Positions 17,340 through 45,224 are shown, counted from the first letter of the stretch. The stretch: 64,000 nt of DNA from Candidatus Nanoarchaeia archaeon (GCA_028711165.1 JAQTST010000001.1:232857-296856), one strand, 5' to 3'. Made by a program: numbers and translations. Notes: generated by a model from the letters alone, not told the origin.

Positions 17340-17572
17340 GAATGGCCCCGAAGTCAAAACGGAATTTTCTCATTCGAGTCCACTCACTCCTTCATGGCCC
17401 CGAATACTCGAGCCCCCACTCGTTGCAACTAAAATTTTTCTGGCACTCGTGAAAACTCTCTACTCCCGACCCCACTCGAAATCACAGAGACAAAATCTCA
17501 CTCGTGAAATCGCTCGGGATTTGTACCTCGATTCAAATCAACATTTAGAAATTGCAATTTTTCAATTGCAAA
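17340..17572. repeat. Composite of family-A repeat modules immediately 3' of tRNA-Lys, punctuated by three direct copies of the tRNA 3' terminus (atggccccgaa)
   Basis: atggccccgaag at 17342-17353, atggccccgaat at 17394-17405 and atggccccgaag at 17572-17583 (tRNA end). Modules between them include actcgagcccccactc, cactcgtgaaaactctc, gagtggggtcgg-type and cactcgtgaaatcgctcgggatttgtacctcg, all shared with other copies. Confidence 0.7.
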
Positions 17573-17684
17573 TGGCCCCGAAGGGATTTGAACCCTCGAC
17601 ACCCAGATTTCTCCCTTATGGTCGGAATCTTCTGTTCCACAATCTTAAGAGTCTGGTGCTCTAACCAGGCTGAGCTACGGAGCC
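17573..17684 (-). tRNA. tRNA-Lys(CTT) with 37-nt intron 3' of anticodon position 37
   Basis: Reverse complement: GGCTCCG-TA-GCTC-AGCCTGGTTA-GAGC-A-CCAGA-CTCTTA[AGATTGTGGAACAGAAGATTCCGACCATAAGGGAGAA]A-TCTGG-GTGTC-GAGGG-TTCAAAT-CCCTT-CGGGGCC-A. All stems pair. Intron is about 17609-17645. Confidence 0.8.
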
Positions 17685-17729
17685 AAAGCCTAATTAATTA
17701 TTAGAAAAAGAGATTAAAAACTTTATCTA

Positions 17730-38560: not shown

Positions 38561-38655
38561 TTTAATTCTATAATAAAGGAACTTGAGATTTTAAATTTTT
38601 AGAATAGGCAAATCTTTTAAATGAAGACGAATTGTAGATTTTGTTTGATAGAAAC

Positions 38656-38708
38656 GCCCCTGTAGTCTAAGCGTCACACAGGAATGTTCGACATAGACTT
38701 TTGGGGCA
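38656..38708 (+). pseudogene. tRNA-Glu-derived pseudo-fragment (first 14 nt and acceptor 3' end of the downstream tRNA flanking a palindromic core)
   Basis: GCCCCTGTAGTCTA...TAGACTTTTGGGGCA. The first 14 nt are identical to tRNA-Glu 5' end. Too short (53 nt) to be a tRNA. Confidence 0.4.
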
Positions 38709-38718
38709 GGAAGAATAA

Positions 38719-38944
38719 GCCCCTGTAGTCTAGAGGCCAAGGACACCACCCTCTCAAAACGCGGAAAGCGGTTTGAATGAAGATTAAAAATCTGATTTCA
38801 AAGTTATAAGAGAGGTGATCAAATCTCGATGAGAGTGGAGATCTAGCATCTCAATGCAATCTCTCGTAGAGAATAACTTCAATCGCGGACAAAATCCGCA
38901 ATTAGGGTACGGTGGTAACCCGAGTTCAAATCTCGGCGGGGGCA
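38719..38944 (+). tRNA. tRNA-Glu(CTC) interrupted by a roughly 153-nt intron (38758-38910), apparently at position 38/39
   Basis: 5' exon GCCCCTG-TA-GTCT-AGAGGCCAA-GGAC-A-CCACC-CTCTCAA; 3' exon GGTGG-TAAC-CCGAG-TTCAAAT-CTCGG-CGGGGGC-A. Acceptor, D, anticodon and T stems all pair across the two exons. Confidence 0.65.
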
Positions 38945-39171
38945 TATTATTTGAACGAGGGGAACCCGATTCAAATCCGAGAGTTTTCACGTGGGCAAGG
39001 AAAAATTTTGTTCGCTGACTTTTTAAAAAACAATTTCGTTCGTCAATCCCGCCCACCCACCCGTTTGGGAAAAATTTGTACTCACGAAATTGTTTTGTTC
39101 CATTAGAAAAAATTAGTTCTCGCAAAATTTTTGGGAGAATGAGTGGGGGCTCGAGTTAGGCGGGGGCATCC
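38945..39171. repeat. Family-A repeat copies 3' of tRNA-Glu, bounded by a direct duplication of the tRNA 3' terminus (ggcgggggcat at 38935-38945 and 39159-39169)
   Basis: cgttcgtcaatcccgcccacccacccgtttgggaaaaatttgtactcacgaaattg (39036-39092) and aattagttctcgcaaaattttt...gagtgggggctcgag. Also a T-arm-like fragment cccgattcaaatccgag. Confidence 0.7.
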
Positions 39172-39245
39172 TAATTTGTAAACAAATTCCAGCAAGCTGT
39201 CGGATGCGCGACGATTTTTTCCAAAAATCTTCGGGAGCATAATAA

Positions 39246-39770
39246 TTATTTTTTCTTTTTTCTAGAACTACCTTCTTCTGTTCTACGAAGCTTGTGGAGT
39301 TCCCATGTAATAAGAATCCCAACAATAAAAACTGCAGCAGTAAGAAGAATCAAGTAATTTCTTATCTGCCCGATTTCAGAACTTTTAACGCGGAACATAG
39401 AAGTTGCTGTCTTATTGCTGTTTATATTTACAACCAAATCATAAACCCCAGGCAAAGTTTCTTCAGGGACTTGTATAGTAGACAAAAAAGATGCTTGTGT
39501 TTCTACTGCCTTAATTTCTTTCTTATAATTAATAATTATATCTCCTTTCTTTATGTAATATTCTAAACTAATATCTTTTCTTCCTGCTTCTGCAATATTT
39601 TCAATTTGAATCTGAAAATTAAGAGTATCCCCTGCTGTAACTGTCTGGTATTTATCTGGAATTGTTATTGATACATCTAATGCTTGAACAAAAAACATCC
39701 CCAATATTATCCCAAATACCATTGAAAAAGTTAAAAGAAAAATAATCTTTGCCATTGTTTTATTATCCAT
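39246..39770 (-). CDS. Type I membrane surface protein with CARDB/Ig-like extracellular domain
   Basis: N-terminal signal-anchor; ITIPDKYQTVTAGDTLNFQIQIENIAEAGRKDISLEYY...GVYDLVVNINSN beta-sandwich pattern; C-terminal TM plus RKKKK. Confidence 0.45.
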   Translation of the reverse strand: MDNKTMAKIIFLLTFSMVFGIILGMFFVQALDVSITIPDKYQTVTAGDTLNFQIQIENIAEAGRKDISLEYYIKKGDIIINYKKEIKAVETQASFLSTIQVPEETLPGVYDLVVNINSNKTATSMFRVKSSEIGQIRNYLILLTAAVFIVGILITWELHKLRRTEEGSSRKKKK

Positions 39771-40266
39771 TTTTTTTATTTTTAATCATAGAATTTATTA
39801 CTATAAAAAAGACTATCATACTCGGGACAGTTAAGGTTAATCCTTTTATTAATTCAAGATAAAAATTATGAATAAAATAACTGACAATTTTTTCAATTAA
39901 AAACAAAATTGCAAAACCCCCCGCAGCTATATAAAGTTTATATCCTTTGGATTCAATTTTACCCCTGAAATAAATCAAATCAACTGCCCACATAATTACT
40001 ACACCGATTACTATTACAATATTTAAATAATAAGTGTCTGAAAGAAATCTTTCTGCAAAATGGATTTCTTTATGCCCGATATAGTAAAGAGAGGCAACAA
40101 CACTCCAACTAAGAGTAAAAAAAGTTAATCTTGTGAAATTTCCGTATATAATCTTTTTTGTTCTCCATCCAACGAATTCAATCCCGATGGATAATAAATT
40201 AAATATAACACTTATGAATACCGCACTTAATGAAAGAGATAATATTAACACCACATCTTCTGTCAT
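39763..40266 (-). CDS. Polytopic membrane protein (about 5 TM)
   Basis: Hydrophobicity only. Overlapping start and stop with neighbours suggests operon membership. Confidence 0.4.
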   Translation of the reverse strand: MTEDVVLILSLSLSAVFISVIFNLLSIGIEFVGWRTKKIIYGNFTRLTFFTLSWSVVASLYYIGHKEIHFAERFLSDTYYLNIVIVIGVVIMWAVDLIYFRGKIESKGYKLYIAAGGFAILFLIEKIVSYFIHNFYLELIKGLTLTVPSMIVFFIVINSMIKNKKNG

Positions 40267-40520
40267 TTCCCCTTTCCTCTTGCTAAGACAATTAAGACAG
40301 TAAGTATCGCAACGATGTATTCAATTTCTATAATTAACCAAGGAAGAGATAGATATATTTCATGTAATGCAAATGCGCTATCAAGACTTATAGCAATCCC
40401 AGCGATAAAAAACGGTATAAACTTTAAAATTCGTTTCTCTTCAATCATTGCAAAAGCAGTTTTCCACAATATAACTGTCGCAGCTATTAATTCAATTAAA
40501 ACATAAATCAAAATATTCAT
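40263..40520 (-). CDS. Small membrane protein (2-3 TM)
   Basis: Hydrophobicity only. Confidence 0.35.
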   Translation of the reverse strand: MNILIYVLIELIAATVILWKTAFAMIEEKRILKFIPFFIAGIAISLDSAFALHEIYLSLPWLIIEIEYIVAILTVLIVLARGKGK

Positions 40521-40903
40521 TTTGTATTCCTCCTAAACCCATATAGCAAACATAAAAAACCGACAAATTTGAAGAATACAATTATTGCCCAATATAAGAA
40601 ATCTAATGCAACTCCTGTCATTGCTTGATATTCCTGCATTGGAATTTCTGCAAGTTTTGTAATAGCTAAAATTATAGCCCCTGTCATAAAATATCTTTTT
40701 GTAATTTTATCTTCTATCTTAAATGAAAAACATAGCACAAATAAAGAAATTAACGCAAAAATCATATCCGGGATGTCATCAAATAATTTGGCATTCTGCC
40801 ATCCCCGGAAAAAAGAAGTCACAACAAAGAAATATGCCAGGATTAAAATTATTGATATTCCCATCCTAACCAAGCATCTACTACTAAATTTTATTTTTTT
40901 CAT
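40517..40903 (-). CDS. Membrane protein (4 TM)
   Basis: Hydrophobicity only. Confidence 0.35.
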   Translation of the reverse strand: MKKIKFSSRCLVRMGISIILILAYFFVVTSFFRGWQNAKLFDDIPDMIFALISLFVLCFSFKIEDKITKRYFMTGAIILAITKLAEIPMQEYQAMTGVALDFLYWAIIVFFKFVGFLCLLYGFRRNTK

Positions 40904-42057
40904 TCTCCTAATAAACTATTAAACCAACTTTTTAATATGTATAACCATCCTGTTTTTATTTTAAACTTTCCTTCAAATTGTTCTACTATTCCTGCATATT
41001 CAACATTTAATTTAAGTGTGTACTCTCCATCATCTAATTTTAAATTTGAAAATTGTTTTATTATTGACTGGTCTGTGTAAACTCTTATTTCTTCAGTTTC
41101 TTCATATTTTTTATTTCCGTCGCTGTCATAAACACTGTAATCTAATCGTGCAGGGACATATCTTTTCCCAAAATTCTGCAGAGTAATCCAAACGGCTAAT
41201 CTATCTGCTACACTTAATGAATTATCTTCTATGTCGAATGTAATATCAAATAATTGTTCGGGTATTGCTTCTTCTGGAGCAGGAGATTCTTCTGGTGGTG
41301 CTTCTGAAGGGATTTCTGCTGGTGTCTCGGTAGGAGTAGTAGGCTCTTCGGCAGGGGGAACTTCTTCAGGCACAATTACTGGTGATTCAATTTCTTCTTT
41401 TGCTTCTTCTATCTCTTCTTGAAAAGGATTTTCAGCAGAACAACTTTGTTCTTCAATTTCTTTAAATTCGCTACAACCTTCATTTACTCCGAAGCAATCT
41501 CTAGTTTGGAGATTATTAATACAATCCCCCCATGCACCGCATTGCCTTGAAACAGTACAAGTTGCTAAATCTTGATGGGCTTGTCCAGATGCTGCACTAT
41601 CTTTTTTTGCTTTTTCGACATTCATACAATTATCTTCCTGAGTTAGATTAGTCCTGCTGCAATCTTCATTTATAACTGTGCATACTCTTGTTTGTTTGTC
41701 ATTACTGCAACTGCTCCATTCTCCACAGGTTTTTTGGACAGAACATAACGCTCCTTTTTCTTCTTCAAACTTTAATACTTTCCATGTTTCTCCGTCGTAA
41801 AATCTTAATTTTTTAGAAACAGAATCTAAATAAATCATTCCAAAAACTGGAAGAACAGGTTCTGTACTTGGGGATAACAAAAGGAAATTCTTGATTGTGA
41901 TCTGCGGTGTTTTTATTTTTAATTCGGATTCATAAAATGGATTTCCATTTTCATCTTCGTTATAACTAAGAGAACTAGCACAGATTATTAAATTTAAAAC
42001 TAATAAAATTCCAATTCCCAGAATTATTTGCTTTTTCATTTTAGTTATAATAACCAA
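40900..42057 (-). CDS. Secreted protein with two Cys-rich repeats, acidic Pro/Glu/Thr linker and C-terminal beta domain
   Basis: Signal peptide; repeats CGEWSSCSNDKQTRVCTVINEDCS and CGAWGDCINNLQTRDCFGVNEGCS; linker PEEVPPAEEPTTPTETPAEIPSEAPPEESPAPEEAIPEQ. Confidence 0.5.
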   Translation of the reverse strand: MVIITKMKKQIILGIGILLVLNLIICASSLSYNEDENGNPFYESELKIKTPQITIKNFLLLSPSTEPVLPVFGMIYLDSVSKKLRFYDGETWKVLKFEEEKGALCSVQKTCGEWSSCSNDKQTRVCTVINEDCSRTNLTQEDNCMNVEKAKKDSAASGQAHQDLATCTVSRQCGAWGDCINNLQTRDCFGVNEGCSEFKEIEEQSCSAENPFQEEIEEAKEEIESPVIVPEEVPPAEEPTTPTETPAEIPSEAPPEESPAPEEAIPEQLFDITFDIEDNSLSVADRLAVWITLQNFGKRYVPARLDYSVYDSDGNKKYEETEEIRVYTDQSIIKQFSNLKLDDGEYTLKLNVEYAGIVEQFEGKFKIKTGWLYILKSWFNSLLGE

Positions 42058-43345
42058 TTACTGTCACTGACAAATCTGTAACTCTCTGGCTCCCTCCAGT
42101 TCCTGAATATTTAAGAACCATTAAATCCCCCTGGCTAAAATTTACATTAAAATTTAACACAGAACCTTTTGTAACTCCTTGCATGTTTACAAATGCATTT
42201 GTGTCAATAAAACTTGTTTTACTAGAAGTGCTTTTCATTAAAGTAACTTTTGAAATATCTGTTCCATCGATAGATGCTGCATTCCATAAAATTCCAGTAA
42301 CTGTCAGATTTTTATCCACTATTGTAGAAGCCGGGCTTGCAGTTATTTTTGCTGTTCCTCCTATTGAGAATGGCAGATATGAAGTTGATACAATTAAAAT
42401 TCCATCACTTGTCGACGAGAATCTTACCGGAATTTTCATATTTCCACCCGAAAGGCAATTTGTTCCGTCTGCTAAACAAACTAATTTATTGTTAGAATAA
42501 ATATTTCCTGTAACATTAATTCCGTTTTCGTCTATAATCATCCTTTCTATCATTGTATTACTTCCTCTCGCAGTTGTTTTGAATTGTATTTTTTTCCCTT
42601 GAGAATTGCCAATCCAATTTTCAGTAGCCAATATTCTTATATCCCCCTGCCCAATTCCCCCGAGAGAAAACCCGTTTGTTCCATATCCTCTTGTAGAAAT
42701 ATACCCAATAGTATCTCCTGCCAAAATTGGTTGCGGATTTGCTAAAGTTCCTCTAGCTTTTCTTAAAATAATTCCTGAACCAACTACTGTGTCATATGTA
42801 TAAGCATCTATCATTGTTCCTATATTAACAGTAGAATTTGTTTCCTGAATTATATGCAGAAATGCTAAGGGAGTTGTTTGCAATCCTATTCCAACTTTAG
42901 AAGCCTGGATTATAATCGGCACGTCATTTGTAATTAATGGAACTTTAATTTCACTTTCTACTTTTATACTCCCTGTTGTTGTTTCATTAATATCTTTTCT
43001 TAAATAATCGAAATGAGTTAATCTCCTTCTTGGAGATTGAATAGTTCCGTCAATAGAAATTTCAACAAAATAATCTTTTGTTGTGTCGCTGCAGATACTA
43101 GAAAGTCCTGTTAATTCTGTTTTCCATTGCCCCCAATATCCCGTTGAGATATTTTTTGTATAAGAACCTAATAAATTTCCACTGGTTTCAGCGTCGTAAA
43201 TATCAAATTTAAAAGTGAATGTTCCCTGTTGGAATTGTGTCCCCTTATAATATTGCCCCTGGAAAACTGAAACATCACTTGAGGCACAAATAAAATTTAT
43301 AAAAATAATTAATATTACTACACCTAAAAGAAATTTTGAATTCAT
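42041..43345 (-). CDS. Large secreted beta-rich protein (adhesin or fibre-like)
   Basis: Signal peptide; Gly/Thr/Ser/Asn-rich with no Cys clusters; segments such as ERMIIDENGINVTGNIY recall fibre and appendage proteins. No confident family. Confidence 0.4.
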   Translation of the reverse strand: MNSKFLLGVVILIIFINFICASSDVSVFQGQYYKGTQFQQGTFTFKFDIYDAETSGNLLGSYTKNISTGYWGQWKTELTGLSSICSDTTKDYFVEISIDGTIQSPRRRLTHFDYLRKDINETTTGSIKVESEIKVPLITNDVPIIIQASKVGIGLQTTPLAFLHIIQETNSTVNIGTMIDAYTYDTVVGSGIILRKARGTLANPQPILAGDTIGYISTRGYGTNGFSLGGIGQGDIRILATENWIGNSQGKKIQFKTTARGSNTMIERMIIDENGINVTGNIYSNNKLVCLADGTNCLSGGNMKIPVRFSSTSDGILIVSTSYLPFSIGGTAKITASPASTIVDKNLTVTGILWNAASIDGTDISKVTLMKSTSSKTSFIDTNAFVNMQGVTKGSVLNFNVNFSQGDLMVLKYSGTGGSQRVTDLSVTVIGYYN

Positions 43346-43989
43346 TGCCTCCCCCTTTTTATTTTGAGCACTTTCTTCTTTTTAATCCTTACTTTTTTTT
43401 GTTTTCTTTTTGTCCAAAAGAATATTTTTATAAAAATATATACAAACAGCGAAAGAACTAATATCCCTGCAATAATTGCAATTGGTAAAATTAAATTTCT
43501 ATTTCTTCCAAGAACAAGTCCTGCAAAAAGTGGCAGAAACCTTTCACAAATATCCTCATAATTATTAACATACTCTTCTGTTTTGCTGTCTGAAAAATTT
43601 ATTATATTTTTTTGATTAATCTGGGCGGTAAGTTCTTGAATCTCTTCAGATGTATAATTTCTTGTCTGTTGAGTTTTTATGTGATTTACCAGCGACTGAA
43701 AAATTATGTCACAAACCTGTTGTTTATTTGATTCTTCTGCAGTATCTTCAGAAATACAAACCCCGCAATCAATTGAACAACTATCACAGGTTTCTCCAGA
43801 ATCACAAAAATCATTTCCACAATAAATTGCCCTTCCTCCCCCAGATGGACTTGCTTGAGCGATTTCTTCCGATGACATTATAAATTCATCATTATATCCC
43901 AGTTCACCTTCAAAAAAAGTTGTTTCTGCCAAACATAGACTAGAAAAAAATAATGCGAATAAAATTACAATTAAAACTTTTTTTACCAT
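43342..43989 (-). CDS. Cys-rich surface protein with C-terminal TM anchor and polybasic tail
   Basis: Signal peptide; YCGNDFCDSGETCDSCSIDCGVC Cys knot-like motif; TM LILPIAIIAGILVLSLFVYIFI followed by KRKQKKVRIKKKK. Confidence 0.45.
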   Translation of the reverse strand: MVKKVLIVILFALFFSSLCLAETTFFEGELGYNDEFIMSSEEIAQASPSGGGRAIYCGNDFCDSGETCDSCSIDCGVCISEDTAEESNKQQVCDIIFQSLVNHIKTQQTRNYTSEEIQELTAQINQKNIINFSDSKTEEYVNNYEDICERFLPLFAGLVLGRNRNLILPIAIIAGILVLSLFVYIFIKIFFWTKRKQKKVRIKKKKVLKIKRGRQ

Positions 43990-44081: not shown

Positions 44082-44154
44082 AGCCCCATAGTACAGCGGT
44101 CAAGTATATCGGCCTCTGGAGCCGGTGACCCAGGTTCGAATCCTGGTGGGGCTA
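44082..44154 (+). tRNA. tRNA-Gln(CTG)
   Basis: AGCCCCA-TA-GTAC-AGCGGTCAA-GTAT-A-TCGGC-CTCTGGA-GCCGG-TGAC-CCAGG-TTCGAAT-CCTGG-TGGGGCT-A. All stems pair. Confidence 0.8.
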
Positions 44155-45085: not shown

Positions 45086-45102
45086 ATTCGCTACATATTA
45101 AA

Positions 45103-45176
45103 GCCTGCGTAGCTCAGTCGGTTAGAGCGCGACATTGGTAATGTCGAGGTCCTGAGTTCAACTCTCAGCACAGGCT
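45103..45176 (+). tRNA. tRNA-Thr(GGT)
   Basis: GCCTGCG-TA-GCTC-AGTCGGTTA-GAGC-G-CGACA-TTGGTAA-TGTCG-AGGTC-CTGAG-TTCAACT-CTCAG-CACAGGC-T. One acceptor mismatch (C6/A67). Confidence 0.75.
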
Positions 45177-45224
45177 TGGTAGTCCTTGAAATAAATTTAT
45201 AAACCTCTTCATCAGACTTCTGAT

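Follow-up and report, generated by a model that had tools for sequence, protein, structure and literature searches.

Introduction

Archaeal tRNA introns have been reported to range from 11 to 129 nt, with medians of 12-25 nt, and the archaeal splicing endonuclease recognizes a 4-bp helix flanked by two 3-nt bulges, a motif termed bulge-helix-bulge (BHB) (PMC4090602, a 2014 review). The tRNA-Trp intron that carries a box C/D RNA was called the unique functional intron unit in the same review (PMC4090602). In Caldiarchaeum subterraneum, the gain of an intron and a stray 5' fragment at the tRNA-Thr locus were tied to a mobile element (PMC3293823), and incomplete tRNA sets have been reported for DPANN archaea (PMC5829648). 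Here we describe a tRNA-Glu(CUC) gene with a 153-nt intron in a 64,000-nt stretch of DNA from a Candidatus Nanoarchaeia archaeon (GCA_028711165.1, JAQTST010000001.1:232857-296856). This whole stretch is called the window below, and positions are counted from its first letter. The window copy belongs to a widespread, apparently undescribed family of very long, modular and canonical tRNA-Glu(CUC) introns, and a folded core of about 56 nt was found in every member of the family.

Results

The tRNA-Glu(CUC) Gene and Its Intron Family

The gene was missed both by default ARAGORN and by an Rfam scan at the gathering thresholds, which each recovered the three other tRNAs of the window. With its intron search, ARAGORN called a tRNA-Glu(ctc) at 38719-38944 (+) with a score of 112.3 and an intron of 153 nt. 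After removal of the intron the score was 123.8, whichever junction was chosen. The four arms are intact, with the acceptor stem GCCCCUG/CGGGGGC, the D stem GUCU/GGAC, the anticodon stem CCACC/GGUGG and the T arm CCGAG-UUCAAAU-CUCGG. The 5' exon (38719-38756, +, ARAGORN with intron search) holds tRNA nt 1-37, that is the acceptor strand, the D arm, the 5' strand of the anticodon stem and C32-A37 with the anticodon CTC; its end was moved from 38757 to 38756 following the BHB analysis. The 3' exon (38910-38944, +, ARAGORN) holds nt 38-73: C38, the 3' strand GGUGG of the anticodon stem, a 4-nt variable loop, the T arm, the 3' acceptor strand and the discriminator A. An initial annotation, made from the DNA alone, had proposed a tRNA-Glu with an intron of roughly 153 nt here, and its exon coordinates, the CTCTCAA string and the GGTGG start of the second half were read in the sequence as it gave them.

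Two independent routes, acetate-kinase synteny and a 24-mer scan, led to 25 loci in Pacearchaeota-like DPANN genomes and metagenomes at which the same tRNA-Glu(CUC) carries an intron of 76-212 nt, in 23 distinct versions. The first route collected contigs encoding acetate-kinase homologues (68-87% identity) and gave L122-L125, L143-L145, L148 and L150-L152; wherever such a contig contains a tRNA-Glu(CTC), the gene is interrupted by a long intron (156, 109, 123, 119, 99, 94, 131, and 94 nt). In the second route, metagenomes were scanned with a 24-mer taken from the conserved intron part, which added 17 loci. All 17 of these matches lie inside a tRNA-Glu(CTC) intron, some of them on truncated contigs. 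Chance does not account for any of this: the same tRNA with a long intron occurs at 25 related loci, and the annotated long-intron gene has the support of relatives as well as of ARAGORN. No description of this tRNA-Glu intron family was found in our literature searches.

The exons have a mean pairwise identity of 0.93 among the family, and the acceptor stem of L145 has changed in a compensatory manner to GCCCUGU/ACAGGGC. Comparison across the loci points clearly to purifying selection on the tRNA-Glu(CUC) gene. A tRNA pseudogene was rejected on the intact stems, the exon identity and the compensatory change in L145. The annotation itself had named pseudogene debris as an example of what could overturn it, and a related reading is a split tRNA whose halves are joined in trans; partial tRNA copies do surround the locus, and Nanoarchaeum equitans splits tRNA-Glu(CUC) at this very position (PMC4390854). 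However, what was found at the 25 loci is a pair of exons that are contiguous (co-linear at 25/25), co-oriented, conserved with compensatory stem changes and joined by a complete splice motif, and no separate promoter signal is conserved inside the intron. We regard debris or a split gene as extremely improbable.

Position of the Intron

The splice junction slides by one base, because A38757 and C38910 are each able to serve as nt 38. When the junctions were folded as the annotation had suggested, a BHB could be drawn, and it takes the standard form at 37/38. In its 5' half (38751-38757, +), C32-U35 (38751-38754) make up the 5' strand of the central helix H, and C36, A37 and the first intron base make up the bulge. 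In its 3' half (38904-38910, +), AGGG (38904-38907) is the 3' strand of H and is followed by the 3-nt bulge U, A, C38. C32-U35 pair 4/4 with RGRG at the intron 3' end in all 18 aligned distinct introns, and both bulges measure 3 nt in 18/18. The 3' strand of H is AGGG, AGAG or GGAG among the relatives and GGAA in L152, where U32 stands opposite, so that a C32-G pair has been replaced by U32-A in a compensatory change. Because the pairing of H and the two 3-nt bulges recur in all 18, we conclude that the intron, as read by ARAGORN and by BHB comparison, would be the 153 nt from 38757 to 38909 (+), canonical at 37/38, with C38910 as nt 38.

The alternative is a non-canonical intron at 38/39 with a relaxed motif, exons at 38719-38757 and 38911-38944, and the loop CUCUCAA. 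This is the placement that ARAGORN reports and that the initial annotation had adopted, and DPANN endonucleases with an L3 insert are thought to accept relaxed motifs (PMC5829648). The two models were compared over the 18 junctions of alignment A1. With the 37/38 model the anticodon stem and H were both 100% paired and the flanking helix h' was 69% paired, with 4 h' pairs changed on both sides. With the 38/39 model, in contrast, H was 86% and h' 44% paired, U33 was paired in 8/18, and the C31-G39 pair has to break. With the junction at 37/38, all loci sharing window-type core and exons have C as nt 38, while the first intron base is A or U, which is the pattern expected of an exon base and an intron base and favours 37/38. 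Under 38/39 the expectation would be reversed: L129 and L137 would have U as nt 38, and the intron would end in an invariant C. The 38/39 placement is very unlikely on these grounds, and the annotation was revised by one base. By comparison, the two exons are linked by a canonical BHB.

Across the family h' has 1-5 bp in register. The window has 2 bp and so reaches the minimum of 2-bp flanking helices in the strict hBHBh' form; L126, L132 and L133 have 1 bp, where a junction or loop intervenes, and the family spans strict to relaxed forms. A fold constrained to contain the BHB has an energy of -70.8/-71.5 kcal/mol compared to -73.4 kcal/mol for the minimum free energy (MFE) fold, a cost of 2-2.6 kcal/mol.

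Several observations speak against this reading of the locus as a whole. The two base pairs of h' in register in the window are only AA/UU. The full comparative structure, at -63.4 kcal/mol, lies 10 kcal/mol above the single-sequence MFE fold, in which the core's GAGAG pairs with the anticodon loop instead. A38 is present in 114 of the 120 uninterrupted bacterial tRNA-Glu(CUC) genes sharing the 5' half, among the matches listed, and this weighs on the side of 38/39 because A38 is the product of that reading. C38 is normal in E. coli tRNA-Glu.

A Conserved Three-Way-Junction Core

The core of about 56 nt occupies 38810-38865 (+) and was delimited with RNAalifold, covariation and a covariance model. 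RNAalifold and manual reading agree on a three-way junction of helices P1-P4. P1 (38810-38816 with 38859-38865) closes the junction, and P2 (38817-38820 with 38840-38843) continues via an internal loop to P3, a 3-bp stem (38825-38827 with 38833-38835) with the pentaloop GAUGA in the window and GGCGA, GAGGA or GACGA as its variants. P4 (38846-38849 with 38854-38857) has 4-5 bp in the family, with the loop CUCA in the window and CUCU, CUAA or CUUU as variants. An invariant 24-mer lies at 38842-38865 and occurs once in the window.

Among close relatives, 97% of the cells in the core helices are paired, compared to 41-58% in slid-partner controls, and one P2 pair switches between C-G, U-A and U.G in 6, 5, and 5 sequences. 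The distant members swap whole core helices yet keep the pairing. P1 runs from GAGAGG/UCUCUC to AAAAGG/CCUUUU in L145, AUGCC/GGCGU in L150 and AUACC/GGUAU in L152; P2, otherwise GAUC/GAUC or GAUU/AAUC, becomes AGACUU/AAGUCU, GGAGUU/AAUUCC and GGAAUU/AGUUCC in the same three loci; and P4 is GCAU/AUGC, with GCCUU/AAGGC in L150 and L152. When the distant members were included, in an alignment fitted to the model (A5), 9 pairs changed on both sides and 0/500 shuffles reached any of the measures. The covariance model hit the window at 38803-38868 with 86 bits; a model built from close members located the cores of L150 and L152 at the right place with 20 and 17.6 bits, respectively. Exactly one copy was found per locus, always within the tRNA-Glu intron. 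The core is not shared by the introns of the neighbouring tRNA-Gln, tRNA-Thr and tRNA-Lys genes, and neither the core nor the element downstream of the tRNA described below was matched in the viral contigs scanned. By comparison, the intron evidently holds a conserved folded domain.

Possible Roles of the Core

The core has a mean pairwise identity of 0.92, while the rest of the intron is at 0.40-0.47. Because the core is as conserved as the exons while the rest of the intron turns over, we think that it is a functional RNA domain, which could be a protein-binding or otherwise active RNA that the intron carries and releases. A more specific proposal, which we put forward tentatively and at somewhat less than even confidence, is that the core is a new non-coding RNA freed by the splicing of pre-tRNA-Glu(CUC), probably circular and trans-acting, most plausibly as a ribonucleoprotein (RNP), across the Pacearchaeota-like DPANN archaea. 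If true, two kinds of functional RNA would be known inside archaeal tRNA introns, this being the second and the first not to be a box C/D guide.

The main rival holds that the core is a cis-acting scaffold or a relic: a folding clamp, or an inherited remnant, that joins the ends of a long AU-rich intron for BHB formation, the intron being kept as a breaker of a tRNA recombination target or by weak deletion pressure. In the shortest introns (L132, L126, and L152), P1 abuts or replaces h', and therefore acts as the closing helix beside the splice motif. Partial tRNA copies abound in the flanks, which would be expected of a recombination hot spot, and it is a published idea that disrupted tRNA genes resist the integration of mobile elements (PMC4390854). 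A clamp, however, needs P1 only, whereas P2-P4, the GNNGA pentaloop and the 24-nt block are all kept at exon-level identity; ordinary archaeal introns, at 12-25 nt, are spliced with no domain of this kind (PMC4090602); and the core is kept at 25/25 loci examined, from small streamlined genomes. Because the closing helix alone would suffice for folding, short introns do without the domain and every locus retains it, we favour a functional domain, and a clamp or relic appears rather unlikely to us.

A box C/D RNA contains box C (RUGAUGA) and box D (CUGA) near its ends, internal C' and D' boxes, and guides of 10-12 nt upstream of D and D'. The initial annotation had noted loose resemblances to such boxes in the intron, and the intron could on this basis encode a guide for 2'-O-methylation of tRNA or rRNA, like the euryarchaeal tRNA-Trp intron. 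The strings themselves are present: AUGAAGA...CUGA in the 5' module (AATGAAGA...CTGA within 38776-38796) and GAUGAGA in the core (GATGAGA, 38829-38835). There is also a weak Rfam match to snoR13 (E = 8), and fibrillarin and Nop5 are encoded side by side in a relative (L147 7055-8371), so that the box C/D RNP machinery exists in the clade. The resemblance did not hold up, however, since the only CUGA lies in a dispensable, variable module and neither the conserved core nor the region near the intron 3' end has a D box. The sole C/D-like pair encloses a short hairpin that leaves no room for a 10-12-nt guide, and it is missing from L124, L132 and other loci. The internal loop of the module is symmetric and has no 3-nt bulge, so that, as drawn, it does not form a k-turn. 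In L145, L150 and L152, P1 is no longer complementary to the anticodon loop. We consider a box C/D guide highly improbable.

Further candidates were tried and rejected. At E <= 10, the matches that Rfam returned for 38600-39300 were all at chance level. A group I intron has a catalytic core of P3-P9 and is usually longer than 200 nt; no Rfam match to one was found even at E <= 10, and family members are as short as 76 nt. An H/ACA RNA would need an ANA box, and none is in register; the hammerhead-like CUGAUGA match is inexact and lacks GAAA; and a micro-ORF (open reading frame) in the core is not conserved. P1, or the CUC of the P4 loop, was considered as an anticodon mimic or guide, but the P1 sequence and the loop change in L143, L145, L148, L150 and L152. 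The P1-anticodon-loop complementarity, which drives the single-sequence MFE fold, occurs in the window-type lineage only and is therefore not what the family conserves. Single-sequence folds also contain a GAGAU/AUCUC hairpin, whose 5' strand changes uncompensated.

On the other side of the balance for a functional core, there is hardly any variation in P3 and P4 between close relatives, the three distant sequences (L145, L150, and L152) contribute much of the core covariation, and the count of covarying pairs comes from an alignment (A5) that was fitted to the model. The core has almost no conserved single-stranded sequence usable as a guide, its few conserved unpaired bases being GNNGA and CUYW, and its function is not readable from it. 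Splicing, the exact cut sites, circularization and the stability of the intron are all steps that we infer.

Modules Around the Core

The intron is modular, with 0-3 variable 5' hairpin modules and an optional 3' hairpin around the core. In the window, the 5' modules extend over 38760-38802 (+, MFE folds) and consist of a hairpin CGC-GGAAA-GCG (38760-38770) and the module hairpin proper at 38772-38802, UUUGAA-UGA-[AGAUU AAA AAUCU]-GAU-UUCAAA, with a tandem G.A internal loop. The form of the latter in the family is UUGAA-UGA-[variable stem-loop]-GA(Y)-UUCAA, in which the inner stems differ in sequence and still pair; it is absent from L124 and occurs in 0-3 copies in the other loci. An enclosing stem P0 was read from sequence complementarity around the core (38801-38879, +), with AAGUUAU at 38801-38807 and AUAACUU at 38873-38879, and is present only in the window, L122, L124 and L127. 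The 3' hairpin GCGGA-CAAAA-UCCGC, which the initial annotation had pointed out, was located at 38885-38899 (+, MFE folds). Its stem covaries (GCAG/CUGC, ACAGAA/UUCUGU, and AGCGG/CCGCU) while the loop stays YAAAA, and introns of the L125 type lack it.

Flanking Partial tRNA Copies

The segment at 38656-38709 (+) folds as a minihelix and has the content of a degenerate partial tRNA copy. Its parts are nt 1-14 of the tRNA, a filler of 25 nt, AGAC (the 3' strand of the D stem) and GGGGC+A (the 3' acceptor strand with the discriminator). Positions 38656-38669 are identical to 38719-38732 in 14/14 bases (repeat D5), 63 nt apart, and GGGGC+A at 38703-38708 pairs with the copy's own GCCCC; the 54-nt piece folds at -22.7 kcal/mol. 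The repeat of both tRNA ends described in the annotation is thereby borne out, and the data support reading it as a degenerate partial tRNA copy. Similar upstream copies with different fillers were found in L126, L136, L139, L140 and L148, and L124 has the same leader directly before its tRNA. A TATA-like motif lies 29-41 nt before the upstream copy where the copy is present, and 29-47 nt before the tRNA where it is absent; its spacing is thus kept relative to the copy rather than to the tRNA. In the window this is TTTTAAA at 38615-38621 (+, read from the sequence), probably an archaeal promoter, which sits 41 nt 5' of the upstream copy rather than 41 nt from the tRNA.

A second element of 225 nt follows the tRNA at 38945-39169 (+) and was recognized from the direct repeats D1 and D6. 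Its beginning resembles that of the 3' exon (ACGAGGGGAACCCGA-TTCAAATCCGAG), its end repeats the tRNA 3' end as GGCGGGGGCAT (39159-39169), and the element is present as a single copy in the window. In L124 it is absent, and the sequence found 3' of 39169 in the window directly follows the tRNA there. The ends of the element are conserved in L126, L135, L136, L138 and L140. Among the six aligned loci, its last bases match the acceptor strand of their own locus in 5/6, in three variants, which points to gene conversion or constraint. L125 and L128 carry the element with a deleted end. It was also considered as a second disrupted tRNA, for example Glu-UUC, and this was rejected, as no cloverleaf can be assembled.

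Some further features of the downstream element were observed. It contains a BHB-like 4-bp helix, CGAG/CUCG, whose AGU bulges on the two sides are identical, as well as the string UUUUCAC. L135 and L140 carry a part of the element as a tandem repeat. In its window-specific middle there is a perfect 13-nt inverted repeat, AAAACAATTTCGT / ACGAAATTGTTTT, at 39027-39039 / 39084-39096 (I7).

Compared with L124, the window carries three inserted segments: 63 nt behind the 14-mer that is duplicated upstream; 224 nt behind the 3' end of the tRNA, with the direct repeat GGCGGGGGCAT as their boundary; and about 4.8 kb with seven ORFs between tRNA-Glu and tRNA-Gln. The seven ORFs are co-oriented at 39246-43989 (-), encode 174, 167, 85, 128, 385, 434, and 215 aa, and separate tRNA-Glu from tRNA-Gln and tRNA-Thr. 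These three tRNA genes are adjacent in L122 and L127 and about 190 nt apart in L124, and the seven-ORF block may be an insertion at a tRNA cluster. Pfam gave no match for the six ORFs tested, and a PHROGs search with all seven gave a single weak match, of unknown function; these outcomes provide no evidence for an integrase or a provirus, and no recombinase or integrase was found at the locus in these searches of the seven ORFs. We treated the flanking copies as debris of degenerate duplication or recombination. If the core proves to be a non-coding RNA freed by splicing, the flanking copies, whose ends track the acceptor sequence, might belong to the same processing unit and not be debris.

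Host and Neighbouring Genes

The genes near the tRNA encode acetate kinase, a PduL-type phosphotransacylase, endonuclease III and the small and large RFC subunits. The acetate kinase is an exact match to contig JAQTLT010000001.1 of GCA_028714745.1, and its close homologues are labelled Nanoarchaeia, Pacearchaeota or Nanoarchaeota archaeon. The G+C content of the window is 34%, and no rRNA lies within it. From its genes, the host is identified as a DPANN archaeon of the Pacearchaeota/Nanoarchaeia kind; the annotation had described very long or non-canonically placed tRNA introns as typical of a few archaeal lineages.

In a genome-contig pattern scan, the 29-mer from the D arm to the anticodon (38728-38756) was identical in more than 119 bacterial tRNA-Glu(CUC) genes, mostly of Acidimicrobiia (L003-L121), and no archaea were among the matches listed for it. 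The tRNA has U11-A24, U13.G22 and a 4-nt variable loop, which is the pattern of bacterial-type tRNA-Glu. This raises the question of a bacterial-type GluRS in these archaea.

Other Intron-Bearing tRNAs in the Clade

Introns were also observed in other tRNA genes. In the window, tRNA-Lys(CUU) at 17572-17685 (-) has an intron of about 38 nt that is canonical at 37/38 by eye, with C32-U35 against GGAG and a 3' bulge AA|A, the same geometry as in the tRNA-Glu intron. ARAGORN models it with an 18-nt intron and a long variable arm, which looks wrong, and the Rfam tRNA match spans 112 nt. A conserved 48-nt intron is present in the tRNA-Gln(CUG) of L124 (1-119, -), L129 (1715-1837), L131 (1537-1657, -) and L142 (93-213, -), two of which were called tRNA-Pyl(cta) by ARAGORN; the tRNA-Gln(CUG) of the window (44082-44154) has none. 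The tRNA-Thr(GGU) has introns of 113 nt in L137 (5734-5919, -) and 63 nt in L145 (1929-2065, -), and none in the window (45102-45177). Long tRNA introns seem to be common in this clade.

Discussion

Taken as a whole, we consider it moderately probable that the locus is a functional Pacearchaeota-like tRNA-Glu(CUC) gene with a canonical 153-nt BHB intron, a functional-RNA core and flanks of debris. In archaeal splicing, the endonuclease EndA has an established geometry with the cuts inside the bulges. In the proposed precursor, the flanking copies would be transcribed as leader and trailer and then trimmed off. The comparative analysis shows that C32-U35 of the anticodon loop pair with AGGG at the intron 3' end to give the 4-bp helix H, that the bulges are C36-A37-A and U-A-C38, and that the anticodon stem serves as the outer helix. 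Following established archaeal splicing, the endonuclease would cut after A37 and before C38, which places the cuts between 38756/38757 and 38909/38910. An RtcB-type ligase would then join the exons into a 73-nt tRNA with the anticodon loop CUCUCAC, and the 153-nt intron would be released and probably circularized. The models predict different exon-exon junctions, CCCTCTCA|CGGTGG under 37/38 and CCCTCTCAA|GGTGG under 38/39, and a circular intron would carry the back-splice junction TTAGGGTA|AAACGCGG.

Because standard tRNA finders and Rfam miss the gene, tRNA-Glu(CUC) will seem to be missing from genomes of this large uncultured group, and this bears on the incomplete tRNA sets reported for DPANN (PMC5829648). 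The introns exceed the length range given for archaea and keep a folded domain, conserved at the level of the tRNA itself, in very small genomes. The conservation of the core is hard to explain unless the domain does something. The family provides a new system in which the purpose of tRNA introns can be studied; archaea have so far offered essentially one example, the C/D intron of tRNA-Trp. It also shows the evolution of an intron through the gain and loss of hairpin modules.

Compared with canonical archaeal 37/38 BHB introns, the tRNA-Glu intron is alike in its position, in the 4-bp helix formed by nt 32-35 with the intron 3' end, and in the two 3-nt bulges. It differs in its length of 153 nt, and up to 212 nt in relatives, versus a range of 11-129 nt (PMC4090602), in an h' that is short or replaced by a multi-helix junction, and in its conserved structured domain. 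The tRNA-Thr of Caldiarchaeum is likewise an intron-bearing tRNA with a stray 5' fragment of the same tRNA upstream. There, however, the fragment lies 1.8 kb away across a recombinase gene, whereas the copies here are at distances of 10-225 nt, with no recombinase found in the seven ORFs searched.

The split tRNA-Glu(CUC)/(UUC) of N. equitans shares with this locus the tRNA, the 37/38 break point and the DPANN lineage, so that the intron sits exactly where the related Nanoarchaeum splits the same tRNA into two genes. Here, in contrast, the halves are contiguous with a cis intron, and there are no separate half genes with complementary leaders. The euryarchaeal tRNA-Trp(CCA) intron with its box C/D sRNA is similar in being a long intron at the canonical position, with a conserved interior, in one tRNA species across a clade. 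Unlike it, the tRNA-Glu intron has no C/D or C'/D' boxes and no guides, and it holds a compact three-way junction with little conserved single strand. The tRNA-Glu core would be a second case of the logic of the tRNA-Trp intron, with a different kind of RNA.

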